Below, piece by piece: positions 1 through 45,775 of a stretch of 64,000 nucleotides of DNA; positions within the stretch are counted from its first letter, which is position 1, and the number at the start of each line of letters is the position of its first letter. Origin of the DNA: Eledone cirrhosa (taxonomy: Eukaryota); the NCBI GenBank assembly GCA_964016885.1, contig OZ024743.1:150040001-150104000 (forward strand), given 5' to 3'. The notes under the pieces were generated by a model. It was not told the origin of the DNA. It was given only the letters and a program-made list of their open reading frames with translations, and searched no databases. The position numbers and the translations under genes were made by a program.

Positions 1-2589
1 CACGTTGAAAACAACAGTACATTTCATAATAGAGAAAGGCAGTATAAACAACTATATTTAACGATAATCATAAAGAAACAGAGGAAGAATATTGAGCAAT
101 GGGATTAAACTGTAGTTATGTGGGGCGGGGTGGGAGGGCAAAAAGCGCAAACATATAATATGAAAATAATGACAAAATTATTTTTTACCAATATATTTTA
201 GACTAAGACAACATGGACTGTGAAAGCAAAAAGCTTATAAGATAATTGTCTTAAATTTAGAAATATATTTGTAAACAAAACTGGTTTGCCTTCTCTTATT
301 GAATTCAATAAACATCTTATAATCTTCTTTTTCTGTATTAATTATTAATGAGACACTAAATTTTTCTGTTGACATATTTTGTTTTATCATTAAAATCAAG
401 TCCATTTTTCAGGTACTTACATGTTGTGCATGTATGTATATCTATTTTGTTTGAAGTTGACTTCATGACAATAGAGTGACTGTAAGATTATGATGCAAGA
501 TGACTGACCACATTATTGTGAATTATTTAATTTTGATTGTAGTTAATATGTTCTACCCAAGAGCATTATTATATTTATCTTGAGACGAAAAATTGAGGCC
601 ATTCCCATTCAAAGTTGAACAGTTAAAAATAGGGAGAAAATCCAGCTGGAAAATTACAATCACTCTATAAAAAGAAACAAATATAAAAGTACCTATATTT
701 GCAGAAACCATTCAGCCAACAATAGTATGGAAAAACAATTTAAGTCAGATATAAAAATACGATTCATTTAAAGTAGTTCAAGAAAACAGAACATTGTCTT
801 TCCAATTTGTAATCTTAAATGAAAGCATTAAATTGTTACAAAGTCCAAAACAATTAAAATAACTAATATAAAAAAGAGTTGTCATCACAGTTATTTATTC
901 TGTTTTAGTCTATGGCCCATGATCATACAACAAAACTTCACACTGCATTGAAATGGCATGAATGTCTTAAAATTATCAGATGATTGAGAATGATACTTAT
1001 TTTGGAATGTTGTAGCACAAAGCTTTGGTGATTGTATATGTGTTAGCAAACTGGGCTGGATGTTTAGTCTTAGTGTTTTTATTTTCTAGCTAATATTTAG
1101 TTAGGTTCAGTTTTCGTTTTCATCATTCTATGCTTGTAAAATAAGTACCAGTAATATACTGAATTCAGATTGAATTGTAATTTATTTAAACAAAAATATA
1201 TCATCGTTATTATCTTTTTTGTTTATCCTAGTAGTTACTAGAATAGATTTTTAATTCATAAAACAGCTGACAATTAGAATAATTCTCAAGGACTTTACAT
1301 TAGAAGTGTAGAAATTACAGAACTTAGCAGAAGATATCTATAAGTATATTACAACATTTATGTTATCATCATCATTGTCATTTTAATGTCTGATTTTTGT
1401 GGGGAGTTTTCACTAGAGGCACTATTTTGTTTTTTGTGCCAGACATATGAAACGAAATCTGTATCTTGCTGGTATTTTTCACCATCCTCATTATTTTCTC
1501 AATGTTCATTGAATAATGATGTCATGTCAGCCAAATGTCACTTCTGATAAAGGGTTGAAGAATGCCAATAGTGATTAAGTTTTCTGCTTCTCTATTTGTG
1601 AGCATTTTGGACTATGCTAAGGTATTAGATTGTCATCATTGATATTCTATCATTTTCAAGATCTTTTCCATTTCTACATTACCTCATTGGTACATACATC
1701 CGAGGTAAGGCAGAAAATAATGTCTAGCATGTGCAAAAAAAACAAAAAAAAACGAAGAAAACGTAGGTGCACGTACTTTAGTTCACTTGACTCTTCAACA
1801 TCTGACATTTACTGATGCAAATATTATTCTGAAGACTAGATATTTTTGTATCCATACACATTTTTTTAATATACTAACACCATATATATATTTACATATA
1901 TTGTATGTATGAGTATATATATATATATGTGTGTGTGTGCATGTGTGCACATGTGTGTGTGTGTATGTGTGTGGAGAGGGAGAGAGAGAGAAAGATAAAA
2001 CGAGGATTGAATTGGCCTCTTCTACCATCATTAACCTGAATGTCATGTTGAAAGTCATATAACCCACCACGACTTCCTGTCCAGAACCATTCTCCACAGT
2101 TTAGTTAAAGGAAAGTGAATGAGAAGCTGACAAAAAATCCACCAAGGATTGGATAGGTCACCAAAGAATCAATGCGTTTTTAAACTAACACATGTTTCAG
2201 ATAGAACTTCCTCCCAAGGTCGTATAGTTACATAATTATAAATTTAAAAATTAGAAGAAAAAAATTATAAAAAAATTTTTTTTAGAAAATTTATTTATGG
2301 TCTAAGACAATCAGGAATTGGTTCAAGATTGGCATCATCAGAGTTTATTTACACATATTATTAACTCATATATATCAATAACGATAATGACAACAACAAC
2401 TATAGACAGTAAGAATTTCAAATAGAATGCAAAATCATGGGAAATCTTCGACTAAGATAGGTTTACCTCACTGGAAGAATTATATGCATCCCTACAAGTC
2501 TTTATCAGATATGCTTTAGCAAGATTAAAAATAAGACAGTATGTTCAATAGTCAATTTAAATTATAGTTAGTTTATGGTGCCTGCACTG

Positions 2590-3020
2590 GTATTGTGTGT
2601 TTTTCTCTCACGAAACCATTACACATCTAATGGAACATCTTCTCTGTCCACTTATTCCTGAGAGTGTTGTAGGGGTAGAGTCCACAAATACTCCTCCCAG
2701 CAGGTCCTGTCAGAAGCAACCATCTCCAACTGATCCAGCTGGATCACCAAGTGTGACCAGCCATGCTCAGGGATGTTATCCAACCATCTTCCTTTGGATC
2801 TACCTTCGGCTCTCTTGCCGGTTGGTTTTGGCTGCAAAATCTGTCCAGCAATTCTTCTCTGATTTCAGAGATCATAGCTCTGATACTATGGGCATGTGGT
2901 TAGAACGTCCAATGGAGCATACTAGCTTAATTTCTAGCCTTCATGCATCCTCTACATTCAATGCCCATGTCTACATACCATGCAATGTTGCACTTCATAT
3001 GTAAACAACATACAATGTAC
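2590..3020 (-). mobile_element. Decayed RTE-clade LINE fragment (C-terminal end of ORF2)
   Basis: Minus-strand ORF 2652-2837 'QPKPTGKRAEGRSKGRWLDNI' matches the RTE C-terminal G.R..GRP..RW.D motif; adjacent revcomp reads as the ..GH..RM motif (2890-2920). Confidence 0.65.
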
Positions 3021-3034
3021 CCTTCAAATAGGTA

Positions 3035-3330
3035 GAATAGTTAAGAAGTTGCTTTGCAGTTATTAGTTTCTGGGTTCAGTCCCACTGTATGACAACTAAG
3101 GCAAAAGTCATTCACCCATAGTCAACCCATGACTCCTGATTGAAATTGAATAAATCAAAATAGTTTGAAAACCTGTTGGATGGATTATAGCAGTAATTCA
3201 AAGAGCCAGCATGCCATAAACTGTGTCAATGATGAATCTCTCTGAGAATAATGTTAAGTGTACACTTAACTGTGGAATACCTAGCCACTTACATGTTAAC
3301 AAGCAGGCATTTCATTGATCAAACAATGGG
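3035..3330 (+). mobile_element. Old tRNA-derived SINE (family D)
   Basis: AGTTAAGAAGTT...GGGTTCAGTCCCACTG head (B-box-like); homologous to 11880-12025(-), 16600-16755(-), 21935-22030(+), 31455-31735(+). Confidence 0.6.
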
Positions 3331-3342
3331 AACACACACACA

Positions 3343-3500
3343 TTATATATATATGTATGTGTGTATGTATATTATATATATGTATGTGTGTATGTATATT
3401 ATATATATGTATGTGTGTATGTATATTATATATATATGTATGTGTGTATGTATATTATATATATGTATCTGTGTATGTATATTATATATATGTATAGTAT
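3343..3500. repeat. 27-bp minisatellite derived from TA/TG microsatellite
   Basis: Unit TGTATGTGTGTATGTATATTATATATA repeated ~5 times. Confidence 0.9.
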
Positions 3501-3645
3501 ATATATATGTGTGGAAATTGTATTTAATTTCTTGGAATTCTGACAAACATAAATGTTTATAACTGATTTAGAGCACTCAACAAGTTACTGGAGTAAATAT
3601 TCCATGATATTAAATAAATGGAAACTATATTTATAAAACCATATT

Positions 3646-3706
3646 TATTTTATTATATATATTTCAAGGGCAACCAAGCAAACCTTGGTGCGCTTTCATC
3701 AGATAA
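3646..3706 (-). ncRNA. Mirror copy of the hammerhead on the left arm (stem I only 4 bp)
   Basis: Exact reverse complement of 3802-3862. Confidence 0.7.
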
Positions 3707-3797
3707 CTTATCGGTCGTAAATTCACTGGACAGTGAATTCCCGACCGATAAGGTATGGTTTTTCATGGGTACGTCTTTATTTATAAAACAAACTTTG

Positions 3798-3862
3798 TAT
3801 TTTATCTGATGAAAGCGCACCAAGGTTTGCTTGGTTGCCCTTGAAATATATATAATAAAATA
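3798..3862 (+). ncRNA. Type I hammerhead ribozyme
   Basis: Stem I TATTTTAT(3798-3805)/ATAAAATA(3855-3862); CTGATGA 3806-3812; stem II AAGcGCACCAAG-gtttg-CTTGGtTGCcCTT; GAAA 3843-3846; palindromic stem III ATATATAT; predicted cleavage after AUA at 3854. Confidence 0.8.
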
Positions 3863-3905
3863 AATATGGTTTTATAAATATAGTTTCCATTTATTTAATA
3901 TCATG

Positions 3906-3938
<33 letters not shown>

Positions 3939-3941
3939 GGA

Positions 3942-4249
3942 GGAGGCACATGGCTTAGTGGTTAGAGCATTGGCCTTGCAATCGAAAAGTTGTGAGTTCA
4001 ATTCTCAGACCGGGTGATATGTTGTTTCCTTGAGCAAGACACTTTATTTCATATTGCCCCAGTTTACTCAGTTGTAGAAATGCAAAGTGGTCGTGGAGGT
4101 GCCACGGCAAAAAAAGCACCCAGCACTCACTGTAAATGAGGTTGGTGTTAGGAAGGGCATCCAGCTGTAGAAATCAAGCTAGGATCAGTTCCCGTCCCAC
4201 CCTTGCAAGCAGGGAAAAGCGGATGTAAAATGATGATGATGATGATGAT
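3942..4249 (+). mobile_element. tRNA-derived SINE family A with RTE-derived tail (internal deletion of ~38 bp)
   Basis: A box TGGCTTAGTGG, B box GTTCAATTC, CCTTGAGCAAGACACTT core, 3' end CCCACCCTTGCAAGCAGGGAAAAGCGGATGTAAAA(TGA)n. Confidence 0.9.
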
Positions 4250-4260
4250 ATATATATATT

Positions 4261-4301
<41 letters not shown>

Positions 4302-4304
<3 letters not shown>

Positions 4305-4830
4305 TCATCATCATCATCATCATCATCACCGTTTTATGTCCGTTCTTCCATGCTAGCATGGGTTAGACGGGTTGTCCTGTTGTGGGCAGTGTCTGGTCGG
4401 CTGACCATGCCTTGCTCATACAGGAACTGTATGATTTCTACAGCTGGATGCCCTTCCTAACACCAACCTCATTTACAGTGAGTGCTGGGTGCTTTTTCGT
4501 GGCGCCTACACGTCCACTTTACAGTGTGGGTTGGGTGCTTTTTTGCCGTGGCACCTCCACGACGACCTTGCGGTGTGGGGTGTCGGGGCATATTGTCTCA
4601 GCTTCAGCTTGTACCCATGGGAGGTCGGGTACTCTGTATTACTGCGTGACGCCAGAAGTCACGGTCGTGTGTCATTGCCTTTGAGAGGTGTAATTGGGTA
4701 AGGTCGGCTTTTATCACCTCATCCCAGGTCATCTTGGGTCTCCCCACTCCGCGGTTTCCATCAACTTCTAGTGCTCTGCACCTTTTTTTTGCAGCTGTCA
4801 TCCTTCATACGCATCACATGTCCATACCAG
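4302..4830 (-). mobile_element. RTE 3' ORF fragment fused to a non-autonomous RTE-derived module with (ATG)n tail
   Basis: ORF 4604-4801 'KRCRALEVDGNRGVGRPKMTWDEVIKADL...DRDFWRHAV' is an RTE C-terminus; 4302-4600 carries the GGTTGGTGTTAGGAAGGGCATCCAGCTG module and an AACCCATGCTAGCATGGAA tail. Confidence 0.8.
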
Positions 4831-5064
4831 GTATTAGGATTGGTACTCTGAAATAGCGCTGTATACACGAATGTATGTATGGTATATTTGGCAATATACC
4901 GTATGTTTAATTAAAAACATTTAGAAGACCATACATTATCAGTTTTAAAGTAGTGACTATGTCACTTACTTCTTTTTGGCGCAAGAAGGGACGCCACGCA
5001 CTCCCCTGCTTCTGCCTAAAATTATAGAAGCTGGATTCTTATATATATATATATATATATATAT

Positions 5065-5455
5065 CCAGGCCGAAACAAATGAGATCGTGTAGGTGTCACG
5101 ACAAAAAAACACACAGTCCACGCTGTAATGTGGCCGTGTAGGCAACACGGTAAAAACCTCCCAGACCCACACTGTAAATGTGGTTGGTGTTAGGAAGGGC
5201 ATCCAACTGTAGAAAACCTGCCAGACAGTCCACGCTGTAATGTGGCCGTGTAGGCAACACGGTAAAAACCTCCCAGACCCACACTGTAAATGTGGTTGGT
5301 GTTAGGAAGGGCATCCAACTGTAGAAAACCTGCCAGACAGTCCTATGCGAGCAAGAAAATCACTCTTGCCTCAAGTGGGACTACCCTCGTCCAAACCCAT
5401 GCAAGCGTGGAACACGGACGTTAAACGTTGATGATGATGATGATGATGATAATGA
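5065..5455 (+). mobile_element. Non-autonomous RTE-derived element with a perfect 112-bp internal tandem duplication
   Basis: ~5113-5224 repeated at ~5225-5336; ends AACCCATGCAAGCGTGGAACACGGACGTTAAACG(TGA)n. Confidence 0.85.
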
Positions 5456-5512
5456 TATATATATATATATGTATGTATATTATATATATGTATGTATGTA
5501 TATGTATGTATA

Positions 5513-5625
5513 TGATGATTTTCTTCGAATGAAACGGTTCTAGTCCTGCAGAAGCCATTTCTATATTAAAAATTTATACTCTGCTATGTAATACTGTGGT
5601 TACCCCCAATTGAACCCAGGGTACA
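5513..5625 (+). ncRNA. 5'-truncated, mutated hammerhead of a second family plus downstream tail
   Basis: TGATGA-ttttcttcgaat-GAAACGG ttctagtc CTGCA GAAGCC; homologous to 40733-40783. Confidence 0.5.
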
Positions 5626-5631
5626 CACATG

Positions 5632-5668
<37 letters not shown>

Positions 5669-5785
5669 TATATATGTATGTATATTATATGTATATATAA
5701 ATATATATATATACACATCCGTATATATATATATGTATACATTATATATATATATATTATAAGTATGTATATTATATACGTATAT

Positions 5786-5818
<33 letters not shown>

Positions 5819-6849
5819 TTATTACATATATATATCACCATTTAACAATATATGTGGGTGTGTGTGTGTACACAAAATTAGCTAAATGTTACCTATTGAT
5901 ATTTCTCCTCATATAATTAAGCATTTTTAATAAAGCTTTAAAGTCTTCAAAGTACCTCCGTTCTATTCATTGCAGTTAAGACTATCAATTTTTGTATTTT
6001 TTTTCACTGTCAGCTAGTTTTCCATCTCAGCTCTCCCTCTCATGGCCCCTATCTTTTTATCCCAGCTATATAATCTAACTATCTTGTGATCTCCCGACTT
6101 TCTCCATGTAATCGTAATATTCCGTGATTTTTCATTCCTTTTTTTTCTTTGAATTTAGTTATTATTGTTATTATTATTGTTGTTGTTATTATTATTATTA
6201 TTATCATTATTATTATTATATTTTTTGTGCTTTTTTTTTTTTCCTCTGTGTAATTTAAGTATCTTTTGATCTCCTTCATTCTTTCAGTGTAATCTAAATA
6301 CCTTGTGATCTTTATATTTCCTCTGTATAATCTATTTTGCATATCCCATTCGCATTATTTGGCTTTTGAAGAATAGGATCTTTTCTTTCAGAACAAAATA
6401 AGGTTCTGCAGAGGTTATTGGTTTTCCTATATAGCTGCCCTTCATTGAAGTTTTTGTTTTAGAAATAAAATTATAAATTTTTACCAAATTTCTTCTTTTT
6501 TTTTTACATTTTTTTGTTGTTGTTAGTAGCTTTATATCTAGTTTTATTATTTCATTTTGTTAGTTTTTATATATAGATATTTCTTTATTTTACTTAATTT
6601 CTTTTTATGAAAATTAGTTTTCGTAAAGGAAATTATATTATTGTTTTGATAGGAGGAAATCTTAATAATGATAATGGCAATGCTGGTGATATTGTTGTTG
6701 TTATTGTTGTTAATGATGAAAATTTCGATGATTATGATAATCATAATAGTGATAAGGAAATATTCTGCTATTATGAAATAATTATCATTGTTGTGATAAT
6801 AGGAAAATATTTGTCTGTTATATGGATATATATATATGCATCCAGATCC

Positions 6850-6881
6850 ATCTATATGCATATATATACATACACACGCAC

Positions 6882-6951
<70 letters not shown>

Positions 6952-7034
6952 TATATATATGTATATATATGCATAAACACACACGCATATACATACATTC
7001 AAATATGTACATACATATATATACATAAACACAC

Positions 7035-7103
<69 letters not shown>

Positions 7104-7120
7104 CATAGAGAGAGAGAGAG
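6850..7120. repeat. (TA)n/(CA)n/(GA)n compound microsatellite
   Basis: Directly visible. Confidence 0.95.
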
Positions 7121-7879
7121 AAAGTTTTCTTGTTTCTTTTTCTTATGTTTCAGTGGTATGGGTTAGAGTGTTTAGTTCATAGTGGAATACAATGATATTT
7201 ATGGAATACCCAGGGACCAGACAGCCTATTCCCCATTTCTGATTCTAAACTATTTTCTGTATGGGTTGGATGGGATGTGTGTCAGCAGCATACACTTGTA
7301 TTTTATTGTCCTTGAGTAAATGATGCATCATTGAATGTTCGGCTTGTAGTCTCTATGGTAACCACCTTAATGCATTGCAAACATGCTATTTTTTTACTGC
7401 ATCAAAATCATCTTCAGCATCTGTTTATATCCTTATATCATCAAAGTGTTATCATCATTATCAGTATAACTAGCATCTAAGCATAATATTTTTTATTACT
7501 CAATCCCTTGATGCTGGTATATGTTAGAAGGGTAGTGTGGGAAAATGAGATAAACAGAGGTATAGAAAGTGGTTTCATGTTATTCCCATTAATGAAATAA
7601 ATACACTATTTTAATGACATCATTGTTGTGTTTTCCCAACACAGGTTTTCTTTCGTTAAATCCTTTGTTTTAAGCCCTGTCACTAATCAGAGGCCTAGAT
7701 CCTTTGGCATACCATATGTTGACCAGGTTTTGTTATGTCTATTGTCAATGTAAAATGGCTATGTAAATATAGTTAATATTAAAAAGCAAAATTATGTTAT
7801 CCAGGCATATAACAATATGGTATGATAATGTCTAGAGGAAAAAATCTCTGAGTTCTTCCTAAAACATAGGATAAAATGT

Positions 7880-8050
7880 TATTTGTTCTGGCGTTTTACA
7901 TTCTGAGTTCAAATCCCACTGGTGTCAGATTTGTTTTTCATCCTTTCGAGGTTGATAAAATGTAGCACTGGAATAAATGTAATCAATTTAATCCAACCCC
8001 ACCAAAAAAATGCTAGCCTTGTGTTTAATTCGAAATCCATTGTCATTGTT
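7880..8050 (+). mobile_element. SINE family B, degraded
   Basis: CTGAGTTCAAATCCC...TTTCATCCTTTCGAGGTTGATAAAAT. Confidence 0.7.
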
Positions 8051-41479: not shown

Positions 41480-44400
41480 ATGACCATGCTGTAAAATGGA
41501 GGGGTAGAGAGGGCCCATGAGTCCAGTAAGACATCCTCTCTAGTGCTGGTGGCACAAATAAAAGCACCCAGTCCATGCTGTAAAGTGGCACTGGTGTTAG
41601 GAAGGGCATCCAACCAGTGTATCAATGCCAAAACAATTATGAGCGCAGCAACAAATATATAGGAACAACAAAAATATGAAGACGTCGCATCTCAGAGTTG
41701 CAACACTTAATGTTGGCATTCTCACAGGTAGCTCTGGTGAAATAGTTGAGATGCTGGAGAGAAGGCATATGGATGTGTGCTGCGTGCAAGTGGTGAGATG
41801 GAGAGGTGTCTCTGCGAGACTAGTTGCAGGCAAACATCTTAGCTATAAGCTTTTCTGAGTGGGTAAGGATGATGGGTTAGGGGGAGTAGGCATTTTCCTG
41901 GCTGATAGATGTATCAATAAGACAATAGAGGTAGTTCGAGTTAATAAGCAAATAATTAAGCTTAGATTAGTTGTAGGCAGGAGACTACTGACAATCATCT
42001 CTGCCTATGCTCTCCAAGCAGGCCTAGGCAAAGATGAGAAAGACTGCTTTTACGAGCAACTTTTACAAACAACCGCAATGACAGAGGATGGAGACATCGT
42101 TATGCTAGCAGGGGACTTCAATGGTCATGTTGGACAGCTCCAGGATGGTTACACTGGGGTACATGGTGGGCACGGTTACGGCTCAAGAAATGAAGGAGTG
42201 AGACTTCTTGAATTTTGTGATGCAGGTACACTGACTATTTGCAACACTAACTTCCAGAAACCTGCCAACCACCTGATAACCTACAAATCAGGCGAGCACG
42301 TAAGCCAGATTGACTTCTTACTAGTTAGGCAGCGGGACAGGCAGATGGTGTCAAATACCAAGGCATACCCTGGGGAAGAATGTACCCCATAGCATAGGTT
42401 AGTCGTTAGTGATATCTCAGTAAGCAAGAGATGGAATGAGACATACAGGAAGGTGTGGAGAAGAAAGGTCTGGAAGCTAAAAGACCTTTCACTAAAATAC
42501 AAATTTAGGAAAGCCCTTCAAGATGTGTATGACGAAAAAGAAGACGATTTAGAGTCGTATGACATAGATAACAACTGGAATTTTTTACGTGACAACTACT
42601 GCAGGCTACTGATGAAACTTGTGGCTGGAGCAGAGCTCCAACCAGACAGTGAGTGACCCGGTGGTGGAACAGCATAGTAGATAGGGCCATTAGAGACAAA
42701 AGACTAGCACGGAAGGCTTGGAAAAAGGGTGGGAGTAGAGAAGGATATACAGCCGCTAAGAGAGAAGCTAGACGTCAGGTGTACTTAGCACGCAGGGAGG
42801 CTGAAAGTAGGAGGTTTGCCAATGTTCTGAGACAGGAAGATCAGAGGTGTGCGGTGTTCCACATTGCAAGGCAGTGTGTCAATGCAAATCAGGATGTTGT
42901 TGGAGATAAATGTGTCCGGAATGATGCCGGTGTACTTAGTGTCACGAATGATCAGCAAAAGGAGGCCTGGAAATGTCATTATGAGAGACTGATGAATGTG
43001 GAGAACGAATGGGGGAGAGATAAATTACCCTCAGTAGATCCGACAGAGGGACCAGCTATTGAGATTGACGAATATAGGGTCCAAGAGTCAACTAAGGAAA
43101 TGAAAAATGGTAAGGCTGCTGGACCGTCGGGGATAGTTGCTGAGATGCTGAAGGCATCAGGGGACATAGGCACTAAACTGATTGCACGCATCATCAATCA
43201 GGCTATATATGGTGGTGTCATACCCAAAGACTGGTGCAGCAGTATTCTCATAAATTGCTACAAAGGTAAAGGGGATGCTCTGGAGAGGAGCAATTATAGG
43301 GATATAAAACTGATGGATCAGGTTATGAAAGTGGCAGAAAGGATATTAGCACAACTAATTAGAGAAAGGGTCAAACTAGATGAGATGCAGTTTGGTTTTG
43401 TGCCTGGGAAAAGTACAACAGATGCCCTCTTCTTGGTGAGACAATTACAAGAGAGGTTCTTAGAGAAGAATAAGCCACTATACCTAGCCTTTGTTGACCT
43501 AGAGAAGGCTTTTGATAGGGTACCCTGATCTGTCATCTGGTGGTCCCTAAGGAAACTAGGTGTTGAGGAATGGCTTGTGAGGACAGTGCAAACTTTGTAC
43601 AGAGGTGCTGTCAGTAAAGTCAAAGTAGGAATGGAGTTTAGTGAGGAATTCCAGATACAAGTAGGAGTACATCAAGGTTCGGTCCTCAGCCTGCTCTTGT
43701 TCATTATAGTCCTCCAAGCCATAACAGAGGAGTTTAAGACTTCTCTCTGCTGATGATCTGGTTCTTATAGCAGAATCAGTAGAGGAGCTATGGAAACAGC
43801 AGTTGGAAGCAAGAGGACTGAGAGTGAACCTAGCTAAGACAAAAGTGTTGATGAGTAGAAAAGAGGACAAAACTCTGATTCCGTCAGTTCGATATGCAGA
43901 AAAGGAACTGGCATAAATTCTATAAAATGCACACAATGCAGATCCTGGGTACACAAGAGATGTAGTGGGATAGCAGGCAAACTAACAGGTAGGGAGAAAT
44001 ACGTATGCAGTAGATGTACAGGGAAATTAGACAGTAGAAGTCGCATTGATAGACACATTTTTCAAATGCAGGCGGGTGCTATAGAAGTGGTGGATAGCTT
44101 CCGATACCTAGGAGATCAGATTAGCATGTTACAAGGCCATAGTATCTAGAATAAGGACGGGTTGGAAGAAGTTTAGGGAGCTTCTTCCTCTGCTGATGAA
44201 GAAGGGTTTCTCCCTGCGTACGAAATGCCGGTTATATGATGCCTGCGTGAGGAGCGCGATGCTGCATGGTAGTGAGACATGGGCAGCAACTGCAAAGGAT
44301 ATGCAACGGCTGGAGAGAAATGAGGCAAGCATGCTCCATTGGATGTGCAATGTGAATGTGTGTGAACGACCCAGCATGGATGTGTTGAGAGAGAAACTCT

Positions 44401-45087: not shown

Positions 45088-45424
45088 TGTATGTGCTACC
45101 TATGGTTTAAAAGTCCCTCGTCCATTATACAGTGGTAACCATGACTGGACCCCCAAAACCCTTGGTAGCACATACATGTTAAGTGTATGAAACTTTGTTT
45201 ACATTAAATAAGCTCTCTTCCAACAGATCAAGCACTATTTTCCTTGAACTTTCATTTACAAATTTCTACCAACGAATATATATATATATATATATGGAAA
45301 GTTATATTTAAATTGTTGTGTTACAACTAGTAAATATTTATAACTGATATAAAAGCACTCGACAAATATTTGGAGTATATTTACAATATTAAATAAATGG
45401 AAACTATATTTATAAAACCATATT

Positions 45425-45490
45425 TATTTCATTATATATATTTCAGGGATAACATATTAACAATATGCTATGCCTTCCTCAGACAAAATA
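45425..45490 (-). ncRNA. Mirror copy of the hammerhead on the left arm (complete)
   Basis: Exact reverse complement of 45626-45691. Confidence 0.8.
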
Positions 45491-45625
45491 CAATATAAGC
45501 AGTTTTATAGATAAATAGATTCGACATACCGTAACAACATCTACTTGCATTTGAGAAGGTTGATTGTTACGGTAGATGTTGTTACGGTATGTCGAATCTA
45601 TTTATCTATAAAACTGCTTATATTG

Positions 45626-45691
45626 TATTTTGTCTGAGGAAGGCATAGCATATTGTTAATATGTTATCCCTGAAATATATATAATGAAATA
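45626..45691 (+). ncRNA. Type I hammerhead ribozyme
   Basis: Stem I TATTTTGT/ATGAAATA (two G-U); CTGAGGA 45634-45640; stem II AGGcATAGCATATT-gtt-AATATGTTATcCCT; GAAA 45672-45675; stem III ATATATAT; cleavage predicted after 45683. Confidence 0.8.
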
Positions 45692-45728
45692 AATATGGTT
45701 TTATAAATATAGTTTCCATTTATTTAAT

Positions 45729-45775
<47 letters not shown>

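Follow-up and report, generated by a model that had tools for sequence, protein, structure and literature searches.

The tandem and inverted structures of Penelope-like elements (PLEs), together with their tails, have been named as undefined features of the PLE transposition cycle (Craig et al., PMC8557442). The same work defines a Hydra clade by the motifs RWK, DKT and CxCX5C, by CxxC and CxH around the E/N of EN, by loss of CCHH and by (TA)n targets, and one member of this clade, Penelope-13_HM, is described there as having a 5'-truncated inverted copy and hammerhead ribozymes (HHRs) on both strands. In Schistosoma, dual HHRs have been attributed to truncated PLEs, and these ribozymes were reported to have a palindromic helix III, to be dimer-dependent and to be weak in vitro (Cervera and De la Pena 2014, PMC4209133). 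For PAc, a Poseidon element of Anolis, it has been shown that the purified protein cleaves and extends both strands and that reverse transcription starts at two internal sites bounding the tail (Frangieh et al. 2024, PMC11167929); the account of these sites given there draws no link from them to inverted insertions. Published work thus already covers inverted pLTRs and one-sided tails as well as hammerhead pairs on opposite strands and the targeting of (TA)n.

Here we describe a palindrome at positions 3511-3906 of a 64,000-nucleotide stretch of DNA from Eledone cirrhosa (contig OZ024743.1, positions 150,040,001 to 150,104,000; the window hereafter), which belongs to a genome of 3.0 Gb. Judged by its sequence relations, the palindrome is a pair of truncated pLTR ends of a coding Penelope-like retrotransposon with RT as well as a C-terminal GIY-YIG. 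Taken by itself it is unremarkable: truncated insertions of Penelope-like elements run to thousands, and this layout has already been published. What may be new is the rule by which its arms are paired, one of them tailed and the other tail-less.

The coordinates of all features are collected in Table 1. The inverted arms match at 105 of 105 positions and are separated by 95 nt, so the perfect 105-bp arms proposed in a sequence-only reading of the window are borne out; the one-sided extension of about 90 bp that it had assigned to the minus-strand copy measures 91 nt and runs up to a (TA)n/(TG)n tract. In full-length elements this tail is the 5'-leader sequence that separates the pLTR from the ORF. 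The 95-nt spacer is not unique sequence and consists of the 5' heads of both copies and the leader of the right copy, and the heads pair as an inner hairpin of about 24 bp with its centre near 3730. Compared with the right copy, the left one is missing 49 nt ahead of its core (the equivalent of 3753-3801), and its head abuts the arm across this gap. The gap is given as assembled; four other contig sets yielded short repeat fragments, none of them spanning the junction. The right copy starts a few nt past the motif where the 5' ends of copies are densest, and no TSD was discernible between the two microsatellite flanks of the insertion.

Table 1. Positions of the features discussed; those without a locus name refer to the window.
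Feature	Position	Strand	Remarks
Left flank	3481-3510		(TA)n/(TG)n microsatellite, inferred target
Tail of left copy (91 nt)	3511-3601	-	between proximal and distal 3' ends
Left arm	3602-3706	-	pLTR 3' part and hammerhead core, stem I 4 bp
Left-arm core	C3 at 3702	-	predicted cleavage after 3654
5' head of left copy (24 nt)	3707-3730	-	inner hairpin partner of 3731-3752
5' head and leader of right copy	3731-3801	+	holds AAG/GT donor-like site
Complete type I hammerhead motif	3798-3862	+	predicted cleavage after 3854 (AUA)
Right-arm stem I, 5' strand	3798-3805	+	8 bp
Right-arm CUGAUGA	3806-3812	+	
Right-arm stem II region	3813-3842	+	
Right-arm GAAA	3843-3846	+	
Right-arm inner helix III	3847-3852	+	palindromic
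Right-arm U16.1	3853	+	AUA triplet
Right-arm A17	3854	+	AUA triplet
Right-arm stem I, 3' strand	3855-3862	+	8 bp
Right arm (105 nt)	3802-3906	+	terminates at proximal (tail-less) 3' end
Right flank	3907-3936		(TG)n(TA)n microsatellite, inferred target
Independent sister insertion	45296-45732		related subfamily; cores 45482 (-) and 45634 (+)
Other hammerhead-pair families	L093:1000-1123; L116:767-949; L029:596-736 and 1126-1337; L083:458-650; L122:2490-2574		
Crossed complementary blocks	L088:3865-3985; L093:3460-3580		

Two other repeats lie close by. A tRNA-headed SINE-like repeat (3937-4070; Rfam tRNA, 27.3 bits at 3951-4008) stands immediately to the right of the palindrome and also flanks the copies L014, L034, L045, L126 and L150, its presence beside multiple copies probably reflecting a (TA)n preference in common. 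At 4111-4497, perfect inverted arms of 66 nt surround an (ATG)n(TA)n(CAT)n core that belongs to a different repeat family.

The right arm has, on the plus strand, every part of the complete type I hammerhead core with an AUA triplet that had been claimed for it. Its helix III is palindromic and has 8 nt, 6 of which lie inside the A15.1-U16.1 pair, and in its stem II, previously given as 12 bp, the predicted fold has 11 bp, one C.C mismatch and one bulged U. The left arm had been said to encode the same ribozyme; it does encode the core on the minus strand, but its stem I is reduced to just 4 A-U pairs because the 49 nt of leader are missing, and the predicted pairing probability of stem I is 0.0 there against 0.2-0.3 in the right arm. 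A search of the window with a type I descriptor, one of the checks suggested for the motif, returned 4 hits, namely both copies of the pair at 3511-3906 and the sister pair at 45482/45634. Since the same descriptor gave 0 hits in each of 60 dinucleotide-matched simulated windows, the motif is not a product of chance. The other suggested check, with the Rfam hammerhead models, left the motif undetected: over positions 1-8000 no hammerhead family stood among the 49 matches at E<=1, which were made up of microsatellite-driven miRNA noise and a weak tRNA-like match beside the palindrome. The call of putative ribozymes is founded on the descriptor and on cross-family conservation, without Rfam support.

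The conservation of the CUGANGA/GAAA core on which the earlier claim depended was found in genomic copies, the core being intact in 68 of 82 positionally sampled ones, with recurrent changes at position 7. Position 7 is a free position of the hammerhead. Between families, the fetched loci show a wholly replaced stem II, compensatory changes in stem I and, in helix III, five different sequences that are all palindromic, a pattern that fits selection on a dimer-type hammerhead as described for Schistosoma (PMC4209133). The active fraction of the monomer is predicted at 9e-5 and the intermolecular helix III at -3.2 kcal/mol. At least four further families of outward-facing hammerhead pairs with other palindromic helix III sequences were also observed (Table 1). 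Like ours, the Schistosoma pairs place their type I HHRs on opposite strands, with about 100-700 bp between them; they differ in that the Eledone motif has 6 palindromic nt inside A15.1-U16.1, a longer stem II and A-U rather than G-C at 10.1-11.1, and in that the ORF link and the statistics of end pairing are shown directly here (PMC4209133).

The copies in the genome are numerous. A 50-mer of the arm has 2,522 exact matches, against 0 for the reversed control, and 13 head-to-head pairs were seen among the first 100 exact matches listed. A whole-element search produced 1,974 candidates; 40 were scored and 30 copies fetched, and these are similar in size and layout, yet the central junction is different in each. 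A fixed family of about 400 bp was considered and discarded as an effect of BLAST selection, as the positional sample described below has variable junctions and sizes, with joined pairs that span about 150 to 3,100 bp. The independent sister insertion in the window has the same head-to-head layout, tail and stems I and III as the palindrome at 3511-3906, and differs in stem II.

A search anchored on the tail retrieved single arms, short palindromes and long copies, and the long copies lead to the parent element. In L050 and L057 about 1.3 kb of AT-rich sequence is followed upstream by GIY-YIG-like coding sequence, and L061 has the head-to-head layout over 4.4 kb and includes an RT thumb, the CxCx5C linker, EN and a tail on each side. 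A protein search with a piece of L061 produced 40,638 first-look candidates, 150 of which were scored, and in the twelve longer stretches that were examined the full plan of the element is visible. L088 shows the order pLTR/HHR, tail, 741-aa ORF, long AT-rich UTR and second pLTR, with a core-to-core distance of 3,874 bp and an ATG aligned with the starts of homologues. The ORF frames of L083-L085 measure 649-699 aa and have C-terminal EN motifs, with YRDD in L083 and L085. A pLTR with hammerhead stands on both sides of the ORF, in direct orientation in L088 and L093 and inverted in L090 and L061, and the tail, 91-92 nt long, is followed by leader and ATG in L088 and L093 as well as in most of L095-L124. 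With the natural 3' end of L085, a copy that bears the ORF, the arms of the window agree at 92.4% (197 nt) and 93.7% (174 nt). As the long copies carry the ORF and the arms match this 3' end, the palindrome at 3511-3906 represents truncated ends of a coding retrotransposon. The Penelope relation proposed earlier is therefore upheld by an RT-GIY-YIG ORF joined to longer copies (L050, L057, L061 and L088), copies of the kind that it had been suggested to look for, while the description of the palindrome as a non-coding element gives way to that of the stump of a protein-coding one whose junction varies from copy to copy.

RT and EN were assigned from the YRDD motif, the GIY-YIG-like pair, the Hydra motifs and the homologues of the ORF (31 at E<=1e-10), the assignment thus being one of motif and homology; Pfam gave nothing meaningful on ORF pieces and full ORFs, and a PDB sequence search gave 0 hits. 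No PLE ORF was seen among the ORFs of the window. The RT at 42.6 kb of the window is a piece of an APE-type LINE, fragments of which occupy 41859-43528 (Exo_endo_phos_2 and RVT_1 hits). A different Penelope-like ORF with GIY-YIG (L094:2-1819; L088:460-1167) adjoins Hydra-type copies.

The motifs of the ORF of L088 suggest that the family belongs to the Hydra clade, with which it shares DKT, CxCX5C, CxxC/CxH, (TA)n targets, a hammerhead near the 3' end and, within the GIY-YIG pair, the lack of CxxC (Craig et al. 2021, PMC8557442). L088 has CxCX5C, CxxC and CxH, motifs that together with DKT recur in most of the 16 homologues examined out of the 31, and CCHH is absent from it, with only one Cys between the GIY- and YIG-like strands. 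The DK[TS] pattern is present in L088, which reads DKT, and in 16/16 of the homologues examined; L088 has RWR instead of RWK, and RW[KR] is found in 15/16. The Eledone cirrhosa family departs from the clade in this RWR and in a unit of about 3.9 kb against generally <3 kb, the 3,874 bp of L088 exceeding what is a descriptive rather than a strict feature (PMC8557442). The tail is longer as well, 91-92 nt here against the 30-40 bp given for PLEs, and the HHR sequence is, when compared by eye, unlike all the Hydra HHRs listed, including that of Hydra-1_oBim (PMC8557442).

The rule of pairing was established on a sample drawn by position, which was chosen to avoid BLAST selection and which, through its exact 50-mer anchor, favours young copies. 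The first 100 exact 50-mer matches listed, on contig C1, gave 88 loci and, after 2 duplicates were dropped, 86 anchors. Arms finish at one of two fixed points 91-92 nt apart, and by this end class 57 anchors are proximal, 23 distal, 5 ambiguous and 1 other. The TA association noted earlier holds: (TA)n follows the distal ends in 21/23, and the proximal ends in 57/57, a figure that is partly circular as TA was used in the classing. An inverted partner was directly joined to the anchor in 45 cases and more distant in 8, and none was detected in 33. Automatic tail alignment found one tailed and one tail-less arm in 41 of the 45 joined pairs, where 50% is expected (binomial p=4.7e-9), and BLAST end class found it in 43/45, with 5 hand reassignments. 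The 8 pairs with gaps of 132-3,481 nt, excluded from the 45, are all mixed. By end class the exceptions are two tail-less pairs, L147 and L154; L061, which was found separately, is two-tailed. A second family with a different hammerhead and 538 exact matches behaves alike, with 8/9 joined pairs mixed (27 loci after 3 duplicates were dropped; 7/8 if two look-alike loci count once) and L228 as the exception.

The two arms of a pair differ in how far they reach and are alike in sequence. In 43 pairs the proximal arm reaches further 5' in 25, the distal arm in 9, and both end within 5 nt of each other in 9. In 5/43 the tailed arm consists of tail only and has no sequence common to its partner. Among 13 testable pairs, arms differ by 1.9 nt per 68 within an insertion and by 8.0 between insertions, the own partner being nearest in 11/13 (Wilcoxon p=2.4e-4), and the 30 BLAST-selected copies give 3.3 within against 5.6-5.8 between, per 88 nt. 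Many pairs have junction overlaps of 1-15 nt. The 5' ends are densest in one 10-nt bin, which holds 22/131 and lies at an Inr-like motif. That the 5' ends of copies lie at a transcription start is suggestive only, and the conservation of the motif is circular, since the motif was selected on. A pile-up of the 5' ends of tailed arms at the proximal site, which should arise if either cDNA were a block to the other, was not significant (7/28, p=0.17).

These observations are probably best accounted for if the palindrome consists of two 5'-truncated PLE 3' ends placed head to head in (TA)n, one of them tailed, that arose in one event in which both target strands were primed on the same RNA. The protein of the element would cut both strands of a (TA)n target. 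On the same RNA, the two 3'-OH ends would prime reverse transcription from different points, one from the proximal site and one from the distal site 91-92 nt downstream. AT-alternating stretches follow both start sites in the leader, and these short stretches would probably help priming. Each cDNA would extend until it stalls or, as is likely, arrives at the 5' end of the RNA, and the far cDNA ends would then be joined, often via short microhomology; short products like 3511-3906 would form when stalling or arrival at that 5' end stops both cDNAs.

We infer twin priming from the combination of the PAc start sites with our pairing counts (PMC11167929). PAc has in common with the Eledone family two internal RT start sites bounding a tail, cutting and extension of both strands and AT-rich targets; its start sites lie inside the ORF and are described as non-homologous to the target (PMC11167929), whereas those of the Eledone family precede the ATG in the 5' leader and have short AT-alternating stretches after them. 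L1 twin priming (Ostertag and Kazazian 2001, via PMC12016303) is likewise described as priming of cDNAs by both strands on one RNA, with two oppositely oriented pieces joined mid-insertion. L1, however, primes at poly(A) and at an internal site that varies, and the pieces overlap little (PMC12016303), while the two sites of the Eledone family are fixed at a distance of 91-92 nt, so that the cDNAs usually overlap and a palindrome forms. A further step is that priming may be programmed, with one RNP assigning the two cut strands to two fixed start sites on the same RNA, and we lean slightly towards this possibility. Against such a coupling of strand and site, the two strands were reported not to differ in start site when PAc was examined in vitro (PMC11167929). 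On balance, the pairing rule and the tail-only inverted arms, taken over two families, would be somewhat better read as a footprint of programmed twin priming than otherwise. We found no paper that applies twin priming to the inverted pLTRs of PLEs, and older subscription literature outside the search may contain one.

The same PLE origin could also be combined with an inversion made by self-priming or fold-back, the second arm being produced when a cDNA, or an antisense template, turns back on itself and is copied, and such a process has been proposed for PLEs of Adineta because their inverted junctions contain palindromes (PMC3846280). A hairpin of 24 bp at the centre of 3511-3906, the 5' ends that fall within 5 nt of each other in 9/43 pairs and the greater likeness of arms within than between insertions are all in agreement with it, and the near-symmetric junctions, which are these 9/43 and include 3511-3906, are explained by fold-back too. 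It nevertheless seems unlikely as the general origin of the pairs. In 5/43 pairs the whole of the tailed arm is situated past the end of the tail-less one, so that neither arm can have been copied from the other. In the 25/43 pairs where the tail-less arm reaches further 5' it is not a copy of the tailed arm, and the tail in turn was not copied from the tail-less arm. Fold-back may nonetheless have added short local pieces such as 3707-3730.

The leader offers some leads of its own. The AAG/GT donor-like site (3750-3758) is common across subfamilies, and the 49-nt gap of the left copy begins exactly there; no conserved acceptor for an intron in the pLTR was found before the ATG. By eye, the tail and the downstream leader contain two complementary blocks (11 bp; about 7 bp) whose order is crossed on the two sides of the distal start site (Table 1), possibly a pseudoknot, and a search for the 5' junction of a divergent family in which this tail-leader pairing could be compared found none. 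A GAGTG-containing motif is common to the tail-leader region of L088 and L093 and to the tail of the second family.

A role for the hammerheads in making the insertion is a separate matter. The sequence-only reading had considered the palindrome ribozyme-processed; going downstream, the distance from the cleavage site to the outer ends of the palindrome is 52 and 143 nt. Across the positional sample, 0/45 partner arms start within 5 nt of the cleavage site, the nearest being 9 and 12 nt away. In a read-through RNA of either strand the antisense arm precedes the ribozyme, and the resulting duplex of 105 bp, predicted at about -205 kcal/mol, would bury both ribozymes. Because no partner arm starts at the cut site and because of this duplex, processing by the ribozymes is unsupported. 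The HHR of PAc was reported to be dispensable in vitro, where transposition proceeds without HHR cleavage (PMC11167929). The hammerheads are best read as presumptive passengers of the pLTR. In the parent transcript they would depend on dimer formation or on protein, and in the read-through RNA of the palindrome they are predicted to be inactive.

The same evidence weighs on the idea of a self-contained retrozyme-like element that moves as a palindrome of about 400 bp and is released by its two ribozymes. Non-LTR retrozymes resemble the palindrome in being short and AT-rich, in their type I HHR and in their relation to PLE pLTRs (PMC7229834), and the idea could draw on at least 30 copies in the genome that resemble one another in size and layout, on a core intact in 68/82 with position 7 as the main variable site and on a helix III that is palindromic across families. 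The similarity in size is a product of BLAST selection, though, and the junctions of the positional sample differ, in pairs of about 150-3,100 bp; the ends are not at the cleavage site, and the ribozymes lie on opposite strands, each preceded by its own antisense arm. Retrozymes are described as head-to-tail tandems (PMC7229834; bioRxiv 10.64898/2026.07.22.740005) that give circular RNAs, whereas 3511-3906 is a head-to-head pair with variable junctions, so the retrozyme affinity seen earlier does not hold (PMC7229834). The retrozyme-like unit is largely refuted by the variable junctions, and we regard it as highly improbable. Least credible of all, and refuted by the contiguity of the sequence with an RT-GIY-YIG ORF, is a TA-targeting MITE whose inverted repeats happen to resemble a hammerhead, which would fit the long inverted arms, the TA flanks and the thousands of copies but not the repeats that are subterminal on one side (91-nt tail), the variable size or the many single arms. 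The earlier reading was right that the palindrome is no MITE, in view of its one-sided tail, variable size and retroelement ORF.

Palindromes of this kind should be annotated as PLE fragments, and not as MITEs or miRNA hairpins. With thousands of young copies whose ends are resolved to the base, the genome of E. cirrhosa is valuable as data on PLE insertion, and its two fixed 3' ends, the nearly strict joining of unlike ends, the lack of common sequence between the arms of some pairs and the unused cut site provide a testable model that links the two RT starts seen in vitro to inverted architecture. If true, programmed twin priming would explain the origin of the inverted pLTRs and tails of PLEs.
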